A stretch of DNA of 64,000 nt from an uncultured Candidatus Saccharibacteria bacterium. Its GTDB lineage: Bacteria > Patescibacteriota > Saccharimonadia > Saccharimonadales > 2-12-FULL-41-12. Positions 4,026 through 64,000 of this stretch are shown in pieces (position 1 is the stretch's first letter; each line of letters begins with the position of its first letter). The notes beneath the pieces were generated by a model. The model searched no databases. It saw only the letters and a program-made list of their open reading frames with translations, and was not told the DNA's origin. Position numbers and translations under genes: made by a program. Location of the stretch: positions 121,004-185,003 of the forward strand of contig CAZNIK010000001.1 in NCBI GenBank assembly GCA_964573095.1. The letters run 5' to 3'.

Positions 4026-4310
4026 ATGAAAAAAATTGATTTTCATATCCATACTATTGCCACAGATGTTGATTCAAGGTTCGAGTTTGATATAGCCAAG
4101 TTGGTCGAATACATAGAAGGCATGGGCTTAGATGGCATAGCTATAACAAATCATAACGAATTTGATCGTGTGCAATATGAAGCCATTTGTAACAAACTTG
4201 TTTGGTTTCAATTCCAGTGCGGGCATACAAAAAGTCAGAACCAAATTAACAGTTCTGACTTTGTATGTTCCAGCTTGGCTCCGGGGAAAGGATTCGAACC
4301 TTCGACCTAG
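4026..4310 (+). pseudogene. truncated PHP-domain gene (N-terminal ~58 codons only)
   Basis: MKKIDFHIHTIATDV...GLDGIAITNHNEF carries PHP motifs I/II (HxH and ..TNHN). Recognisable sequence ends near 4200. The open frame then runs through the tRNA-Asn terminator and into the tRNA gene, so the tail is not genuine coding sequence. Confidence 0.6.
4227..4260 (-). terminator. intrinsic terminator downstream of tRNA-Asn
   Basis: On the minus strand, AGTCAGAAC (4260-4252) pairs with GTTCTGACT (4241-4233) and is followed by TTTT(G). Confidence 0.55.
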
Positions 4311-4350
4311 TGGTTAACAGCCACCCGCTCTACCGCTGAGCTACCCCGGA
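4276..4350 (-). tRNA. tRNA-Asn (anticodon GTT), CCA encoded
   Basis: The reverse complement folds as a cloverleaf: TCCGGGG/TA/GCTC-AGCGGTA-GAGC/G/GGTGG-CTGTTAA-CCACT/AGGTC/GAAGG-TTCGAAT-CCTTT/CCCCGGA/G/CCA. 75 nt. Confidence 0.95.
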
Positions 4351-32024: not shown

Positions 32025-32099
32025 TGGGGAGTGGCCAAGTGGTAAGGCACCAGGTTTTGGTCCTGGCATTCGGGGGTTCGAGTCCCTCCTCCCCAGCCA
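32025..32099 (+). tRNA. tRNA-Gln (anticodon TTG), CCA encoded
   Basis: Cloverleaf: TGGGGAG/TG/GCC-AAGTGGTAA-GGC/A/CCAGG-TTTTGGT-CCTGG/CATTC/GGGGG-TTCGAGT-CCCTC/CTCCCCA/G/CCA. Confidence 0.95.
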
Positions 32100-40453: not shown

Positions 40454-42178
40454 TTATGCAGCGGCAAAATATACGTCGTCTAGATACGCAGTAATGCCAG
40501 ATCCCTTAGTAACTATCACTTGCACGCTTGCAGTCTTGACGTTTGTAGAAGTTGGTTTGTAGGTAAAGCTAATGGTACGCGCCCCTTTATTCCTTCTCTC
40601 ATAAATGTACTTTCCAGATATCCAGTTTCCAAGAGCATCATATTCGTCAACATAAAACGCGAACGCACCACTGGTACGGGTTTTTACGTTGGTGTAGGCC
40701 TTGAAGGTGTGTGTTTTTGTGGCGTCTACTGCGACCTTTGGCGAAAATAAATGTATGTTTTTTGTTGTTGAGGCGGTCAACTTGATAGAGTTTTGCTTTG
40801 TAGTTCCACCGTTGTTTAGTTGATCAAGTACCACATTGGTAGCTGAGTCTGTGGTCCAGCCTTGCGTGAGTCCCGCATCAAACGATGCATTGGCCAAAAG
40901 ATTTGGGCTTGGCGCTGGAGGGATTGGTGGTGGTGTTGGCGAGTTGCTTGACGTAGAAAACCACTTTACGTTATCGATGTATAGCTCAATATTTGAATTT
41001 GCGGTAACTATCACTTGAAGGCTTGAGGTATAGACACTAACACTACTTGGCTTGTATGTGACATTGAGACTTTTGGTGTAATCGTTTCTTACGGCGCCCA
41101 GATATATGCCAGATATCCATGTGCCGCTAAGGTTGTACTCATCAATATAGAACGCAACTTCCCCACCTTGGAGGGTGCTGGCATTCAAAAAGCCCTTTAG
41201 AACATAGGTTTCTGTTGGGTTTACCGACACTTGAGTAGAGTGAACGTGGATGTTTTGTGTCGATGAGGTGACGGCTAAGCTGTTGGTTGCGTCTGGCGAG
41301 CTCCCCTTGGATTGTGTGTTGACACTTACGTTGCTCGGCGCATCGGTCGTCCAACCCGTTTGTCCTTGATTAAAAGTTGAATTTGACAGCAAGTTTGTGT
41401 CGCTATTCACGAGTCCAGCAGTAATATTGGGTGTCGCCATATTAAGCGACTTTACGTACTGTGCGATAGATCTTAAGTCATTCGTGCCATATTCGTAATC
41501 TTGAGGATCAGAGCTTGGTACGTCTTTGATGTCATGGAATACCAAGATAAGCCAGGTGTTGTTTTGCTTTGCTGAATCGATATAGCTCTTTACAGTCTGG
41601 ACACTTACCCCAGTTTGCACTTGCTGAACCTTTAAAAGATAGTCTGAATAGGGCCACGCATTATAACCCTTATCATGAAATGGCCGATGTGACGTGTAAT
41701 GTCGAGCAATCGCCTCGATAACTTGACCATTATAATCGCCAAACGGTGTTGCGTAGCTCGTCGGCGTAAAACCGTGCTGGATAAGTGTTTGCTTGCAATT
41801 TGCAGCTTCGGTTTCCATCTGTTGGGGTGTAATCTGGGTTGATAGCGGATGAGTTACACTATGTCCGCCAATTTCCCACCCATATGTCGTCGATAGTTGG
41901 GTCACATCGGCCCACGTCATGTACTCTGCCGAACTACCAATAAAGCCGGTCGTCACATAGTTTGTGCCACTGATGCCGCTTTCGCTCAAGACAGGGGCCG
42001 CTTTTGTGAGCGCACTCTTATAGCCGTCATCAAAGGTGAAGCTTACCTTCCCTTGTGCGCTCAAACTTGTTGATGCAGCGCTGGCTTTTGGGCTGTAGCA
42101 TACGACACCGATTGCCATGATTAAGCCAACCACAAGCAGTGTGCGTTTTTGTGAACTGCTCCGTATTCGTGCGAACAT
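40454..42178 (-). CDS. secreted polysaccharide deacetylase (CE4/NodB) with two tandem CBM-like C-terminal modules
   Basis: Signal peptide (..SPKASAAST). NodB motifs FTFDDGY and GGHSVTHP. Then two ~150-aa homologous modules (NLLSNSTFNQGQTGWTTD... and NLLANASFDAGLTQGWTTD...) joined by the linker SPTPPPIPPAPSP. Confidence 0.85.
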   Translation of the reverse strand: MFARIRSSSQKRTLLVVGLIMAIGVVCYSPKASAASTSLSAQGKVSFTFDDGYKSALTKAAPVLSESGISGTNYVTTGFIGSSAEYMTWADVTQLSTTYGWEIGGHSVTHPLSTQITPQQMETEAANCKQTLIQHGFTPTSYATPFGDYNGQVIEAIARHYTSHRPFHDKGYNAWPYSDYLLKVQQVQTGVSVQTVKSYIDSAKQNNTWLILVFHDIKDVPSSDPQDYEYGTNDLRSIAQYVKSLNMATPNITAGLVNSDTNLLSNSTFNQGQTGWTTDAPSNVSVNTQSKGSSPDATNSLAVTSSTQNIHVHSTQVSVNPTETYVLKGFLNASTLQGGEVAFYIDEYNLSGTWISGIYLGAVRNDYTKSLNVTYKPSSVSVYTSSLQVIVTANSNIELYIDNVKWFSTSSNSPTPPPIPPAPSPNLLANASFDAGLTQGWTTDSATNVVLDQLNNGGTTKQNSIKLTASTTKNIHLFSPKVAVDATKTHTFKAYTNVKTRTSGAFAFYVDEYDALGNWISGKYIYERRNKGARTISFTYKPTSTNVKTASVQVIVTKGSGITAYLDDVYFAAA

Positions 42179-42327
42179 AAGTCTCTTTAATCTCCTTACT
42201 ATTAAGATAACTATACAATCTATTTGAATAATAGACTATCATATTACAAAGCGAATAAAAATTGCTTGTGTTTATATAGCCATTTTTTAACGAATCTAAG
42301 CTCAACCGTTAATAATATAAAATATAC

Positions 42328-42356
42328 TTTACAAAAATACATCAATAGTGTATATT
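42328..42356 (+). promoter_or_regulatory. sigma70-like promoter upstream of the LPNTG mini-ORF
   Basis: TTTACA (42328-42333), a 17-nt spacer, then TATATT (42351-42356), within an AT-rich divergent intergenic region. Confidence 0.5.
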
Positions 42357-42370
42357 TGTTAATTAGATAA

Positions 42371-42412
42371 AGAGAGGGTATTTCGGGTCTAACCCGAAGA
42401 CTCTCTTTTTTT
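42371..42412 (+). terminator. terminator-like hairpin plus U7 in the leader of the LPNTG mini-ORF (attenuator or tiny sRNA)
   Basis: AGAGAG (42371-76) pairs with CTCTCT (42401-06), and TCGGGT (42383-88) pairs with ACCCGA (42392-97), followed by T7. There is no upstream plus-strand gene for it to terminate. Confidence 0.5.
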
Positions 42413-42437
42413 ATCTTTAAGATAACGAGGAGTTAAT

Positions 42438-42626
42438 ATGTACGAAGGCGGACGTGGTGCAGGTTTTGTGCCGGTGGCAAGTACTTCAGCAGGTGTGCTC
42501 ATTCTTCCCAACACGGGCGGAAGCATTGCCCTAACAGTCCTTTCTATTCTACTCATCGCAGTAGGTGGATTAGTGATTGTTTCTACTGCTGCAAGATTTC
42601 TTGCAAAGAAAATGTTTAAGGCTTAG
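42438..42626 (+). CDS. 62-aa LPNTG sorting-signal mini-protein (candidate dedicated sortase substrate)
   Basis: GAGGAG lies 6 nt upstream, and an in-frame TAA 15 nt upstream excludes a longer N-terminus. MYEGGRGAGFVPVASTSAGVLI-LPNTG-GSIALTVLSILLIAVGGLVIVSTAA-RFLAKKMFKA has the motif, a hydrophobic span and a basic tail. Confidence 0.65.
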   Translation: MYEGGRGAGFVPVASTSAGVLILPNTGGSIALTVLSILLIAVGGLVIVSTAARFLAKKMFKA

Positions 42627-42655
42627 AAGGCAAGAAGCTAGGTACATTCGGTTAA

Positions 42656-42700
42656 AGAGGGTGAGCATTTAATAAAATTTAAGTGTTCGTCCTCTTTTTT
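42656..42700 (+). terminator. strong intrinsic terminator between the mini-ORF and the sortase gene
   Basis: A continuous 17-bp stem (42656-42672 with 42679-42695, including G-U pairs), loop TAAAAT, then TTTTT (42696-42700). Confidence 0.75.
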
Positions 42701-42725
42701 AACGTCTTTAGCAAGGTGGATATTT

Positions 42726-43322
42726 ATGAATATTAGATTCAATCTGAGCGTCGGTGTGCTGTTTATTGCCGCCGGTCTTTTGGTAGGGCAAGGCTCCGTT
42801 GTGGAGCTTGCAAAGGGGTTAGTCGAAAAAGACCGAGTTGTTTCTACAGCGCAAGAAAAGAGCGCCGAAACACAAACACCGCAACAGCACCAAAATTCGG
42901 TGCCTGTAATTGAAGGGCGCCCAGTGCGCATCGTGATTCCGTCGCTAGGAATAGACCTTCAAGTGATTGATGGGAGCTATCGGCAACCAAACTTCGAATG
43001 GACGCTCAGCAAGGATAAAGCCCAGTTTGCAACAAACACCCAGCAACCAAATAACATATCTGGCAATACGTTTATTTACGGACACAACAACAAATATGTT
43101 TTTTCCAAACTGCCAGCCATAAAACCAGGCGAACAAGCGATCGTGTACACCGATAATGGCCACAGATTCACCTATTCCTATAAAAGCGCGCAAACGGTCA
43201 AGCCCCAATCGACCGAGATTTTTAACTATCGAGGTGGTCCACGACTCACGCTTCAAACATGCACTGGATTTTGGTACGAAAATCGAAGCTTGTATCGATT
43301 TGATCTGGTTGAGGCTCAATAA
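42726..43322 (+). CDS. sortase family transpeptidase (class E/F-like), membrane-anchored
   Basis: An N-terminal TM helix, catalytic His in FIYGHNN, Cys in LTLQTCTG (TLxTC), and Arg in ENRSLYRF. RBS AAGGTGGA. Confidence 0.85.
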   Translation: MNIRFNLSVGVLFIAAGLLVGQGSVVELAKGLVEKDRVVSTAQEKSAETQTPQQHQNSVPVIEGRPVRIVIPSLGIDLQVIDGSYRQPNFEWTLSKDKAQFATNTQQPNNISGNTFIYGHNNKYVFSKLPAIKPGEQAIVYTDNGHRFTYSYKSAQTVKPQSTEIFNYRGGPRLTLQTCTGFWYENRSLYRFDLVEAQ

Positions 43323-43324
43323 TA

Positions 43325-44590
43325 ATGCTGTACGACTTTCTATTCTATCTATTTGTTACCGTCAGCGTGGTTAATATTGCTCATCTGGGCATGTATTTGG
43401 TGGGTGCCAATATCTACGATATTAAATCCTATAAAGACACGCAAAAATCGAATCGTAGGAACCGCAGGAAACTTGCACCTCTCGTTAGCATACTAATTCC
43501 AGCTCATAATGAAGAAGAATCGATTATTCGATGCATTGACTCTGTTCGAAGAAATACTTATCGAAAGATTGAAATTATTGTTATCGATGATGCTTCGACC
43601 GACAATACGAAGCAGCTTGTAAGGGATTACATATCTAAATATCCAAATAGGTCAATAACGCTTACTTTCCGACGGATAAACCAAGGGAAGGCCCAGGCCT
43701 TAAATCACGCCCTAAAAAGAAAAGCTAGGGGCGAGTTGGTAATGACACTGGACGGAGACTCTGTGCTGGACAGGTTTGCCATAAAGCGGGCGGTTAACTA
43801 CTTTTCGGACCCAAAAGTTGTTGGAGTTGCGGCAAACGTCAGAGTGATGGAAAGCATGACAGTTCTTGGTTTATTGCAAAGGTTCGAACATATGGTCGGC
43901 TATCGCTCAAAGAAGTTTTATTCGGTTTCGAACAGTGAGTATATTATTGGAGGTGTTGCGTCTACCTATCAACGTGAGGTAATAAAGAAAGTTCGGTACT
44001 ACGACCACGATACTCTTACTGAAGATATTGGGCTTAGCCTTAAGGTCGCTGCCCTCGGAAATAAGGCAAACAGACTCGTGTATGGGGTGGATGTTATGGC
44101 GTCAACTGAGGGGGTGCACTCGTTTAAGGCACTTCTTAACCAGCGCTACAGATGGAAAATGGGTGGTTTACAAAACATTGTAAAGCACCGACAACTGGCA
44201 CTGCGTACGCCCAAAACGCACAGCATGGGGTTGAGTTACTATCGTATACCGATGGCCTTTATTGGAGAAGCAATGTTGCTGGCGGAACCATTGCTTCTGG
44301 CATACGTCATTTATTTGAGTATCATAAGCGGCAACTTTGCAATGTTCGCCGGTGCGTATATGATAGTTTCGCTATATATTATGTTGGTATTAGCTCACGA
44401 TGAACATACGAGATTTCGAGATAAAACAAGATTAGTTGGCTACATACCTATTTTGTATTTCGTATTTTTTATTATGAACGTGGTGCAGCTGATTTCAATT
44501 CTTCGCTGTGCTGCCAACTACAAGCTCATTAGCGGGAAAAGAAAAGTTTCTGGTACATGGATTTCTCCCGAGAGGCTCAGAACGACGTAG
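43325..44590 (+). CDS. processive family-2 glycosyltransferase (PgaC/IcaA/cellulose-synthase-like), polytopic
   Basis: SILIPAHNEE, VIDDASTDNT, TLDGDSVL (DxD), TEDIGLS (TED) and QRYRWKMG (QxxRW), with N- and C-terminal TM helices. It starts 2 nt after the sortase stop. Confidence 0.85.
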   Translation: MLYDFLFYLFVTVSVVNIAHLGMYLVGANIYDIKSYKDTQKSNRRNRRKLAPLVSILIPAHNEEESIIRCIDSVRRNTYRKIEIIVIDDASTDNTKQLVRDYISKYPNRSITLTFRRINQGKAQALNHALKRKARGELVMTLDGDSVLDRFAIKRAVNYFSDPKVVGVAANVRVMESMTVLGLLQRFEHMVGYRSKKFYSVSNSEYIIGGVASTYQREVIKKVRYYDHDTLTEDIGLSLKVAALGNKANRLVYGVDVMASTEGVHSFKALLNQRYRWKMGGLQNIVKHRQLALRTPKTHSMGLSYYRIPMAFIGEAMLLAEPLLLAYVIYLSIISGNFAMFAGAYMIVSLYIMLVLAHDEHTRFRDKTRLVGYIPILYFVFFIMNVVQLISILRCAANYKLISGKRKVSGTWISPERLRTT

Positions 44591-44626: not shown

Positions 44627-44857
44627 CTATTTTTTGAAGCGGGCGAGAATACTTGCAATTGCGGTTAGTGGACTTGCAACTTTTTTGGCGGATTCACTTA
44701 TGCTTTGAAAGTTTCGGGCGGCGTGCTCAATGTGGTCAACAGCCCTGTTGATCTTTTTTATTATGGCTATTACCAAGCTCAGCGCAACAATACCAAGAAG
44801 CAGAAATACTCCTAGAAATATCGAGAGAATAATTACTAAAGTTTCGTAGGCATCCAT
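44627..44857 (-). CDS. small membrane protein, DUF948-like
   Basis: 76 aa. One N-terminal TM helix followed by an amphipathic helix (KKINRAVDHIEHAARNFQSISESAKK). Confidence 0.4.
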   Translation of the reverse strand: MDAYETLVIILSIFLGVFLLLGIVALSLVIAIIKKINRAVDHIEHAARNFQSISESAKKVASPLTAIASILARFKK

Positions 44858-44888: not shown

Positions 44889-45608
44889 TTATCGCAAACT
44901 TTTGGTCGATTGCTTCTTTGCAAATAAGACGGCAACCACTCCCCCGGCGTTGATCGTCCAGTGCAGAAGCCAAGGAGCAATAATGGTGTTTGAGATAATT
45001 CGCAAATGACAGAACACGACGCCAGCGAGCGCTGTTGCCATAACAGTTGCGGCTACAAAGGCAGTTTTGTTTGTGAGATTTTGGTTACTCCGTCGGTAAC
45101 TATTCACATTCATGCCATTAATCGCCGGAAATATATGCCACAAGCCAAAAACAAGCGAACTTAACACCACTGCTACACCGGTCTGGTGGTACGCGAGGAA
45201 TAAGGCCAGTAAAAAGCCGCGAAACAGGAATTCTTCAAACAACGCTGTTATTAAGGGTATTCGAAAAAGAGTTTCATATAAAATTCGACTAGTTTTTGTT
45301 TTGAGAATCGAAGTTTGCGACAGAAAATAGCCGTGGAGAAGCGGTAAGTGCGCAAGCCCGATCGCAATGATGAGCAACGCAAGCGATGCCATAGCCGCGA
45401 TCAACACTCCCTTCGGAATGTAGGTAATCCCCAGTCCCAGCTCGCCTATACTTAGACCAATCAGATGCGCGATCCCAAGAACGACTAGGGCAAAAGCGCC
45501 GTTGGTTAGCCAGTGAATTTTTGTGGGAATAACCCGCGAAAGAAGGATGCCGTACGCCAGCACGACGATAGATAGCCCTAGTTGTGTGATGAATGCGCTC
45601 CCCAGCAT
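44889..45608 (-). CDS. CPBP family intramembrane glutamic endopeptidase (CAAX protease/Abi-like)
   Basis: ALFEEFLFRGFLL (EExxxR), FGLWH and LLHWTINAGG motifs in a polytopic protein. Confidence 0.8.
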   Translation of the reverse strand: MLGSAFITQLGLSIVVLAYGILLSRVIPTKIHWLTNGAFALVVLGIAHLIGLSIGELGLGITYIPKGVLIAAMASLALLIIAIGLAHLPLLHGYFLSQTSILKTKTSRILYETLFRIPLITALFEEFLFRGFLLALFLAYHQTGVAVVLSSLVFGLWHIFPAINGMNVNSYRRSNQNLTNKTAFVAATVMATALAGVVFCHLRIISNTIIAPWLLHWTINAGGVVAVLFAKKQSTKSLR

Positions 45609-63658: not shown

Positions 63659-63710
63659 ATTTTGACCTTTATTACATAGTTACATTAATTCCAGAAACTG
63701 TATCGACCAT

Positions 63711-63739
63711 AAAAAAAGTCCCTGGATGAAACCAAAGAC
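63711..63739 (-). terminator. attenuator-type hairpin plus U7 in the rplJ leader
   Basis: On the minus strand, GTCTTTGG (63739-63732) pairs with CCAGGGAC (63725-63718) across a TTTCAT loop (including two G-U pairs), then TTTTTTT (63717-63711). It lies 52 nt upstream of the rplJ start. Confidence 0.5.
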
Positions 63740-64000
63740 CAATATAAGCACGCTTGCTAAATATTTGCTCCTCGGTAGCATTCTTAATCTCGCTTTTCGA
63801 GACGCTACTGTCTTCGGTAACTAGTGACTTATTTTATCAGAATACGACGAACAGAGCAACTACTCTAGTGGCGCGAGCATCGCGTATCTATCCGGCGAGA
63901 AGATTCCAGAAATATTTAGTGACATATCGCCGAGTTTTGTGGCTACTTCTTGCTCACGACTGCCGTTATGTGTAGCGTCAAGGTCGGCTGGCGCCCCTCC

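Follow-up and report, generated by a model that had tools for sequence, protein, structure and literature searches.

Sortase substrates are defined as Sec-exported proteins with a passenger domain. Here we describe a gene whose predicted 62-aa product appears to have neither a Sec signal peptide nor a passenger: the mini-LPXTG gene (mini gene), found directly upstream of a sortase gene in a 64,000-nt stretch of DNA from an uncultured Candidatus Saccharibacteria bacterium (GenBank assembly GCA_964573095.1, contig CAZNIK010000001.1, positions 121,004 to 185,003 of the forward strand). This whole stretch is referred to as the window, and positions are counted from its first nucleotide. The gene had been picked out in a preliminary description made from the sequence alone, and is followed up here computationally. 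Like canonical LPXTG substrates, the mini protein has an LPXTG pentapeptide followed by a hydrophobic segment and a basic tail, and its gene adjoins that of a sortase with intact His, Cys and Arg residues. Unlike them, members of its family have only 9–30 residues before the motif, and their cytoplasmic tail is conserved in sequence (AKKAYKA), whereas canonical LPXTG tails are simply basic. The mini protein also scores below the threshold of the Pfam model PF00746 and has no NCBIfam match above cut-off.

The coat protein of phage Pf3, a capsid protein, is small and N-out/C-in and is inserted into the membrane independently of Sec and with the help of YidC. The mini protein resembles it in size (44–62 aa), in its short N-tail with few charges, its single transmembrane (TM) segment and its basic C-tail, and in having no cleavable signal peptide. 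The Pf3 coat has no sortase motif, and insertion of the mini protein by YidC is a prediction. The long chaplins of Streptomyces are anchored by a sortase (class E) and have signal peptides and a defined chaplin domain of ~40 aa. Like the proposed mini peptide, they are small, hydrophobic, G/A/V/T-rich surface polypeptides, attached by a sortase, that alter surface properties; no homology between the two was detected, and the cassette sortase is not assigned to class E.

The mini gene and the sortase gene stand in a cassette with genes for a processive family 2 glycosyltransferase (GT2) and a secreted carbohydrate esterase family 4 (CE4) deacetylase. In this the cassette resembles the ica and pga systems for poly-N-acetylglucosamine (PNAG), which pair a synthase with a deacetylase (IcaA/PgaC with IcaB/PgaB). 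It differs from them in lacking IcaD/PgaD and IcaC and in a GT2 that falls below the equivalog cut-off, and we know of no PNAG locus that has a sortase together with an LPXTG gene. In the PEP-CTERM/exosortase (EpsH) system, a signal composed of motif, TM segment and basic tail is tied to exopolysaccharide glycosyltransferases, and the substrates are Ser/Thr/Asn-rich (PMC1569441). That system is Gram-negative, and its exosortase and PEP motif are unrelated to those of the cassette; as a rule PEP-CTERM proteins carry signal peptides, and a genome encodes many of them, whereas each cassette has one mini substrate. SafA, a single-span protein of ~50–60 aa that is conserved throughout the Actinobacteria and whose gene is linked to that of a sortase, has an N-in/C-out topology, PGP and FPW motifs and no LPXTG, and shields sortase from signal peptidase (PMC9282373). 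Identity of the mini protein with SafA was rejected: the alignments contain neither FPW nor PGP, the mini gene lies upstream of the sortase gene and not downstream, and the charge pattern predicts the opposite topology (N-out/C-in). The Pam pili of Saccharibacteria, which are built from donor-strand-exchange pilins (bioRxiv 10.64898/2026.03.03.709456), were also considered and are unrelated to the mini family.

The mini gene and its family

The region from 42000 to 43800 was re-read and its open reading frames (ORFs) listed; the mini gene encodes MYEGGRGAGFVPVASTSAGVLILPNTGGSIALTVLSILLIAVGGLVIVSTAARFLAKKMFKA (62 aa), and its parts and neighbours are located in Table 1. A longer N-terminus is impossible because of an in-frame TAA at 42423–42425, 15 nt 5' of the ATG. 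The Shine-Dalgarno (SD) sequence, upstream stop, LPNTG position and basic tail given in the preliminary description were all read again and are correct, and its hydrophobic span of ~24 residues comes to 23. The N-terminal 22 residues contain one Arg and one Glu and lack both an h-region of normal hydrophobicity and an AXA site; judged from this composition they have no Sec signal-peptide features, in agreement with the preliminary description. In an AlphaFold2 (AF2) model based on a 78-sequence alignment, residues 10–22 form a helix of low to moderate confidence, residues 23–29 (LPNTGGS) a loop and residues 30–60 a confident TM helix, and no folded passenger domain is present. A six-frame check of the window found the mini gene to be its only LPXTG-type sorting-signal ORF, and one sortase gene.

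Table 1. Features of the mini-LPXTG cassette in the window.
Feature	Position	Strand	Details
CE4 deacetylase, secreted	40454..42178	-	Pfam Polysacc_deac_1 (PF01522), 66 bits vs 23.1; divergent from mini gene
Sigma-70-like promoter, predicted	42328..42356	+	TTTACA-17 nt-TATATT; 10/12 consensus matches; kept in L001; consensus match only
Stem-loop + U-run in predicted 5' untranslated region	42365..42416	+	-25.3 kcal/mol, z = -4.7; 0/200 shuffles as stable
SD sequence GAGGAG	42427-42432	+	5 nt ahead of mini-gene ATG; read directly
Mini-LPXTG gene	42438..42626	+	ATG at 42438; stop 42624-42626; 62 aa
N-tail, residues 1-22	42438-42503	+	
LPNTG, residues 23-27	42504-42518	+	LPXTG-type pentapeptide, 30-40 residues from C-terminus
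Hydrophobic/TM span, I30-A52	42525-42593	+	23 residues
Basic tail RFLAKKMFKA, R53-A62	42594-42623	+	positive tail following the hydrophobic segment
Terminator-like hairpin + T-run	42651..42703	+	-22.7 kcal/mol, z = -6.0; kept in L001
Dedicated sortase	42726..43322	+	198 aa; Pfam Sortase (PF04203), 72 bits vs cut-off 26.6
Processive GT2 (PgaC/IcaA-like)	43325..44590	+	begins 2 nt after sortase stop

No Pfam or NCBIfam model scores above its cut-off on the mini protein, and no NCBIfam LPXTG-anchor model is reported at E <= 0.1. The sole NCBIfam match is to HpsB (E = 0.01, 15.8 bits against a cut-off of 150). A type IV prepilin or pseudopilin was considered and dropped: the match spans the TM segment alone, and the protein has no G|F...E5 leader.

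To place the mini gene in a family, loci were collected starting from the sortase, giving nine genome loci and 80 metagenome loci. The closest genomic relatives are metagenome-assembled genomes of Candidatus Saccharimonadales/Saccharibacteria. Wherever a locus extends far enough upstream, an LPXTG gene stands immediately 5' of the sortase gene; in ~60 loci (54 unique sequences) this is a mini ORF of 49–68 aa, present in one copy per locus and in nearly all cases preceded by an AGGAG-type SD 4–11 nt before a conserved ATG. An exact-sequence look-up of contigs that encode the mini protein gave no record, a single-sequence word-index search with the protein matched itself alone, and the family was detected through the sortase neighbourhood, exhaustive phmmer and a profile search. 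With the mini protein of the window as query, exhaustive phmmer against 1.84 billion representative proteins returned 33 hits at E <= 1e-3, all of 53–98 aa, with no long LPXTG protein among them. A profile built from 59 minis recovered at least 733 clusters at 90% identity; the best 120 of these clusters are 56–64 aa long, nearly all annotated as 'hypothetical protein', and come from Saccharimonadales/Saccharibacteria. Reverse look-ups from three mini proteins on large contigs found the order mini, Sortase, GT2 each time, with CE4 adjacent, and because they start from the mini protein they remove the bias of sortase-led locus discovery. The mini family is large, has no name and is specific to Saccharibacteria (TM7). 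A few members or their sortases carry the NCBI labels Limnocylindria, Verrucomicrobiae, Pedobacter or Nitrosopolaris (P0098, P0136, P0140, P0209); the contigs concerned are probably mis-binned, and their gene neighbourhoods resemble those of Saccharibacteria.

The dN/dS of the mini gene, calculated by the Nei-Gojobori method on codon alignments, is 0.07–0.25 in close pairs. Between the window and its closest relative, locus L001, there are 7 synonymous and 2 conservative non-synonymous changes (omega 0.10). The mini ORF is a real gene under selection, neither a chance ORF nor a decaying remnant. The conservation check proposed in the preliminary description thus came out in favour of the gene, the ORF being intact in relatives and under purifying selection. 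Its view of the product as essentially a bare sorting signal paired with the neighbouring sortase is borne out. It had also failed to recognise a described system here. This agrees with the missing Pfam and NCBIfam models, with the 'hypothetical protein' labels and with a full-text literature search (sortase combined with Saccharibacteria, Patescibacteria, candidate phyla radiation (CPR), PNAG or 'no signal peptide'), in which no such mini proteins were described.

Family statistics were taken over 198 unique sequences, with a median length of 59 aa. The consensus reads M-Y, a G/A/V/T-rich tail of 9–30 aa, LPNTG, a TM segment and AR..AKKAYKA. Tyr occupies residue 2 in 177 of the 198, and roughly 8% begin with MS or MT. 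The N-tail (median 19 aa; mainly G, A, V and T; median grand average of hydropathy (GRAVY) +0.8) has no basic residue in 109 members and one in 88, which gives 0–1 K/R in 197/198. At this basic position K and R interchange; Lys before the motif is absent in 124/198, and the window protein has Arg. LPNTG is identical in 176/198 and most remaining members retain LPxTG, the variants being LPSTG, LPATG, LPNTS, LPKTG, LPVTG, LPFTG and LPNAS, with LPNTH in L082/L083. The TM segment (~24 aa, GRAVY +2.25), universal in the family, leads into a tail with the consensus (S/T)(T/S)vaR(F/L)vAK(K/R)AYKA, and 189/198 members have 3–4 K/R among the last 14 residues. This charge pattern fits the predicted N-out/C-in topology. 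That part of the topology proposed in the preliminary description stands, while translocation of the N-tail is something we infer.

Variants at the P1' position (LPNTH, LPNTS, LPNAS) occur in L082/L083 (in L083 the mini ORF ends at ~4900), P0033, P0034, P0026, P0031 and P0046. If they are cleaved, this sortase clade would tolerate unusual P1' residues.

The cassette sortase and the long-substrate sister clade

The sortase gene, whose identity as claimed in the preliminary description is confirmed by Pfam (Table 1), starts 99 nt 3' of the mini gene. Its product retains the invariant His120, Cys179 and Arg187 and is, from its sequence, apparently active. The AF2 model (mean predicted local distance difference test, pLDDT, 88) consists of an N-terminal TM helix, a disordered linker of ~25 aa and a canonical catalytic barrel. 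None of the NCBIfam sortase class models reaches its cut-off, the best being SrtD (45 bits vs 140), and classes C, D, E, F and GN gave 26–34 bits against cut-offs of 158–166. Foldseek finds the barrel no closer to any one of classes C, E and A, with 17–28% identity to their structures, and sequence matches in the PDB are weak (<= 28 bits). The sortase is of an unclassified class, since sequence and fold give no class assignment. The cassette sortase appears dedicated rather than housekeeping because locus L094 contains a second, different sortase with no mini gene nearby.

The second sortase of L094 (208 aa) adjoins a second GT2 in the region 584–2610, without a mini-LPXTG gene upstream. The second GT2 is on the opposite strand, and its N-terminus resembles that of the cassette GT2. 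Pairing of sortase and GT2 may be more general than the mini family.

The sortase could also act as a pilin polymerase, linking the mini peptides through an N-tail Lys, or head-to-tail through the N-terminal amine, into a covalent thread of 20–26-aa units. The conserved motif with its variable spacer would be compatible with such a mini-pilin, as would the terminator of the mini gene (see below), a common feature of major structural subunits. The frequency of Tyr2 (177/198) predicts that Met1 is retained, and class C pilin sortases are among the solved structures nearest in sequence and fold. The fold is, however, no nearer to class C than to A or E, and neither Pfam nor the AF2 model reveals a pilin or Ig-like (CnaB/CnaA) domain. 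The Lys statistics given above, with K/R interchange and Arg in the window, exclude a lysine isopeptide as the general mechanism. The MS and MT starts would lose Met1, so that the N-terminus is not uniform, and we know of no sortase with an N-terminal Met nucleophile. Head-to-tail polymerisation is unlikely, a pilin-like lysine polymer (which the preliminary description did not list) is disfavoured, and the mini-pilin as a whole seems to us very improbable.

In ~12 loci the slot of the mini gene holds a gene for an N/T/S/G-rich LPXTG protein of about 175–190 aa with a signal peptide, at a distance of about -2 to 47 nt (mostly 17–30) from the sortase gene. The outlying locus L008 has a version of 293–301 aa in this slot, with the tail RRVLSRRI and without the motif (A/S)(R/Q)F..AY(K/R). 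By eye, several of the long proteins share this motif with the minis (QFAKSAYRRR, HFGAKAYRF, RFGSAAYRQF), and the mini and long first genes appear to carry related sorting signals. Across 643 kb of related loci, the only true LPXTG sorting-signal ORFs of at least 110 aa were cassette first genes. In a crude neighbor-joining tree of sortase catalytic domains, all long-linked sortases except one outlier group in a single clade, which is nested among the mini-linked sortases; the tree is compatible with a change in substrate size in either direction.

Long-substrate cassettes are adjoined by 705–712-aa proteins with SGDA...NTNGG.ATSG repeats (L005 7568–9706, minus strand; L007 3061–5178, plus strand). 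These end in a TM segment with a shared G-E-R-L motif, …LLMLLGERLISRFRLIS and …LVLLGGERLFTLIRSRQLA, which may be a different C-terminal sorting or anchoring signal.

Larger LPXTG proteins with a similar sorting-signal tail fill the same slot in the sister clade. This speaks for a non-functional origin of the mini gene, as what is left of the 3' part of a full-size LPXTG gene or as a chance ORF. The preliminary description had named a 3' remnant as the finding that would count against it, and a larger gene does occupy the slot in this clade. The minis, however, are no remnant: they form a stable family of hundreds of independent intact copies, with start, SD and length conserved and purifying selection evident. 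There is no upstream coding relic, and the window has an AT-rich, promoter-bearing spacer and a divergent gene at that place. We regard a non-functional origin as scarcely credible.

Transcription signals and glycan-synthesis genes

The predicted promoter sits in the divergent intergenic region 5' of the mini gene. The stem-loop that follows it in the predicted 5' untranslated region is conserved in L001 with stem-preserving changes, and similar structures are found in L071, L078, L080 and L087; it is not family-wide (upstream-region median z = -0.8). It is terminator-like, and may act as an attenuator or stabilise the 5' end of the mRNA. In the spacer that separates the mini gene from the sortase gene, a hairpin with T-run was counted in 38/51 unique loci by a T-run-anchored fold test (spacer median fold z -4.3). 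This hairpin had been overlooked in the preliminary description, as had the four-gene module described below. The layout would be typical of structural precursors that are produced in far larger amounts than the enzymes that process them. An Rfam scan of the window assigned neither of the hairpins flanking the mini gene to a known RNA family; its sole matches were an L10 leader (63703–63835, minus strand) and tRNAs at 4279–4350 (minus strand) and 32025–32096 (plus strand).

A small ORF, then a strong hairpin and T-run, upstream of genes for envelope enzymes is also the classic layout of a leader peptide or monitoring substrate, in which the mini ORF would control terminator read-through into the sortase and GT2 genes in the manner of attenuation or of the MifM/SecM arrest peptides. 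Against this, the hairpin begins 25 nt past the stop codon, farther than a terminating ribosome covers, and the sortase SD (AAGGTGG, about 42713–42719) lies outside the hairpin and is not sequestered. The whole tripartite signal is conserved at the protein level, with low dN/dS. A 62-aa chain would not be inserted co-translationally and therefore would exert no membrane feedback on its own translation. A regulatory leader is in our view highly improbable.

The cassette GT2 aligns with 392 of the 407 positions of the PgaC_IcaA model, at 163 bits against an equivalog cut-off of 422, and matches Glycos_transf_2 at 113 bits. Its translation contains the motifs DDAS, DGD, TED and QRYRW and N- and C-terminal TM segments. 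A GT2 homologue is present in 79/90 loci, directly after the sortase in most of those with enough flank. The CE4 protein has the CE4/NodB motifs TFDDG and HSVTH in its translation, and an internal duplication in which residues ~263–418 match a second, C-terminal copy at 41% identity. The repeat domains are CBM_4_9-like, with weak CBM_4_9 matches in homologues, which suggests that the enzyme may bind the polymer it modifies. Among the mini-type loci with long flanks, nearly all have a CE4 homologue in the flank. CE4, mini, sortase and GT2 together make up a four-gene module.

Genes further out in the window (RarA, SDR, DUF7144, CPBP protease, Abhydrolase_9, AI-2E transporter) are unrelated and are common to the nearest relative only. 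At its 3' end the cassette is adjoined by a 76-aa single-TM ORF (44627–44857, minus strand) and a gene for a CPBP/Rce1-like intramembrane protease (44889–45608, minus strand), a family that includes other C-terminal sorting proteases. Both were rejected as parts of the module, being conserved in L001 only. In several genomes murA-like, murB and SHMT genes are often near the cassette. Fusions of 506–520 aa that join an XRE-type helix-turn-helix domain (HTH_3/HTH_31) to a MurA-like EPSP_synthase domain recur there with murB and SHMT (L090 3499–5019, L092 10207–11745, L094 10225–11787), an unusual combination of regulator and cell-wall enzyme.

The glycan genes raise the question of whether peptide and polymer are coupled. 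The LPNT-acyl intermediate could be resolved on a CE4-made glucosamine amine of the GT2 polymer, or a wall-linked peptide could anchor or prime the polymer, and the result would be a peptide-tagged or wall-tethered capsule of PNAG or chitosan type. A conceptual precedent is the exopolysaccharide-associated PEP-CTERM/exosortase system (PMC1569441). The spacing of the sortase and GT2 genes is fusion-like (2-nt gap in the window, 4-nt overlap in L092), and the frequency of GT2, mostly right after the sortase, and of CE4 in long-flank mini-type loci speaks for coupling. So do the full processive-synthase motifs of the GT2, its end-to-end PgaC/IcaA alignment, and N-tails rich in Thr/Ser/Gly/Ala. 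The linkage of CE4 is looser, however, varying in position and strand, and the long-substrate clade has GT2 but no CE4 within the flank. The score against the PgaC model falls far below the equivalog cut-off, which makes PNAG at most a candidate for the polymer, and we know of no natural sortase with a sugar-amine acceptor. On balance we think such coupling rather unlikely. The same low expectation applies to its fullest form, a CPR sortase pathway without a Sec signal. Here a ribosomal peptide of ~20–26 aa would cross the membrane N-terminus first, and a sortase of a new class would join it to glucosamine amines of a GT2-extruded PNAG/chitosan-like polymer, or use it as a wall tether for that polymer. 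If a peptide–polysaccharide conjugate of this kind were true, it would be a first in two respects, as a natural glycan acceptor for a sortase and as a sortase substrate that lacks a signal peptide.

Predicted processing and significance

The reading that we prefer, and hold tentatively, is that the mini protein is an abundant, dedicated sortase substrate without a Sec signal, oriented N-out/C-in, whose N-peptide is joined to an amine of the envelope. The mini gene would be driven by its own promoter, and most transcripts would stop at the hairpin, leaving the peptide in excess over sortase and GT2. In a chain of 62 aa, a TM segment that stops 10 residues short of the C-terminus would clear the ribosome only after termination, and insertion is therefore predicted to be post-translational. 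The nearly uncharged N-tail of 9–30 aa would then lie outside and the R..AKKAYKA tail inside, as in the Pf3 coat and without a Sec signal peptide. The sortase would cut between Thr and Gly of LPNTG and pass the G/A/V/T-rich peptide (about 10–30 aa, starting Met-Tyr) to an envelope amine; candidate cleavable peptides for the cassette sortase are GVLILPNTGGSI and AGVLILPNTGGSIA.

The acceptor would most probably be the peptidoglycan stem peptide or lipid II, with CE4-made glucosamine amines ranked second and a membrane-level role third. Peptidoglycan or lipid II is favoured because this is the default chemistry of non-pilin sortases and murA and murB are nearby. The outcome would be a dense, mildly hydrophobic peptide decoration, acting together with a partly de-N-acetylated GlcNAc-type polymer made by GT2 and CE4. 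Topology, cleavage, abundance, acceptor and physiological role are all, in this scheme, predictions from sequence.

Several points weigh against a cleaved and transferred peptide. To our knowledge no sortase substrate without a signal peptide has been described, so that the key step has no precedent; cleavage, N-tail export and the product are likewise steps that we infer. The mini protein scores 14.7 against PF00746, whose gathering threshold is 20. Six members (7 with one LPNAS) have Ser in place of the P1' Gly, and one lineage has His. The cargo is tiny, of low complexity and variable in length (9–30 aa). In the AF2 model the short helix of the N-tail could pack onto the TM helix, and longer N-tails could form an N-in hairpin. 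Finally, the conservation of the AKKAYKA tail and the abutment of sortase and GT2 genes are hints of interactions at the membrane, for which a pure cargo model has no need.

Such interactions would be central if the mini protein or its C-peptide stayed in the membrane as a partner of the neighbouring enzymes: a pseudo-substrate or regulator of the sortase, a SafA-like protector, an IcaD/PgaD-like activating subunit of the GT2, or a signalling C-peptide. The preliminary description had listed a wall- or glycan-linked decoration, a priming or regulatory pseudo-substrate and a signalling C-peptide, and all of these stay candidate roles. The cytoplasmic tail is the most sequence-specific conserved part outside LPNTG and is similar in several members of the long clade, while the shortness and variability of the exported part speak against a function of its own. 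A PNAG synthase as a rule depends on a small partner in the membrane, for example IcaD or PgaD, and no other small partner is conserved in the cassette. SafA offers a precedent for a small TM regulator linked to a sortase gene (PMC9282373), yet its hallmarks are absent here, as set out above. Nor would a mere TM partner need the near-invariance of LPNTG. The terminator of the mini gene suggests a large molar excess, unusual for a stoichiometric subunit or regulator, and canonical surface proteins fill the same slot in the sister clade. On balance we consider a membrane-resident partner unlikely.

What appears new here is a sortase system whose dedicated substrate is reduced to a sorting signal without a signal peptide and which stands inside a glycan-synthesis module. 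Current annotation misses the family or calls its members 'hypothetical', and a family model would improve the annotation of CPR genomes. The system is compact, requiring a catalytic domain of ~130 aa, a synthetic peptide and defined acceptors, and an orthogonal pair of LPNTG sortase and mini-tag could interest protein engineers. If the mini protein is processed as proposed, sortases would be able to act on substrates that arrive at the outer face with no signal peptide, and sortase 'cargo' could be a bare linker peptide. Saccharibacteria depend on surface contact with host bacteria, and their envelope chemistry is almost unknown; the linkage of sortase, GT2 and CE4 points to a new envelope-building module in these organisms.

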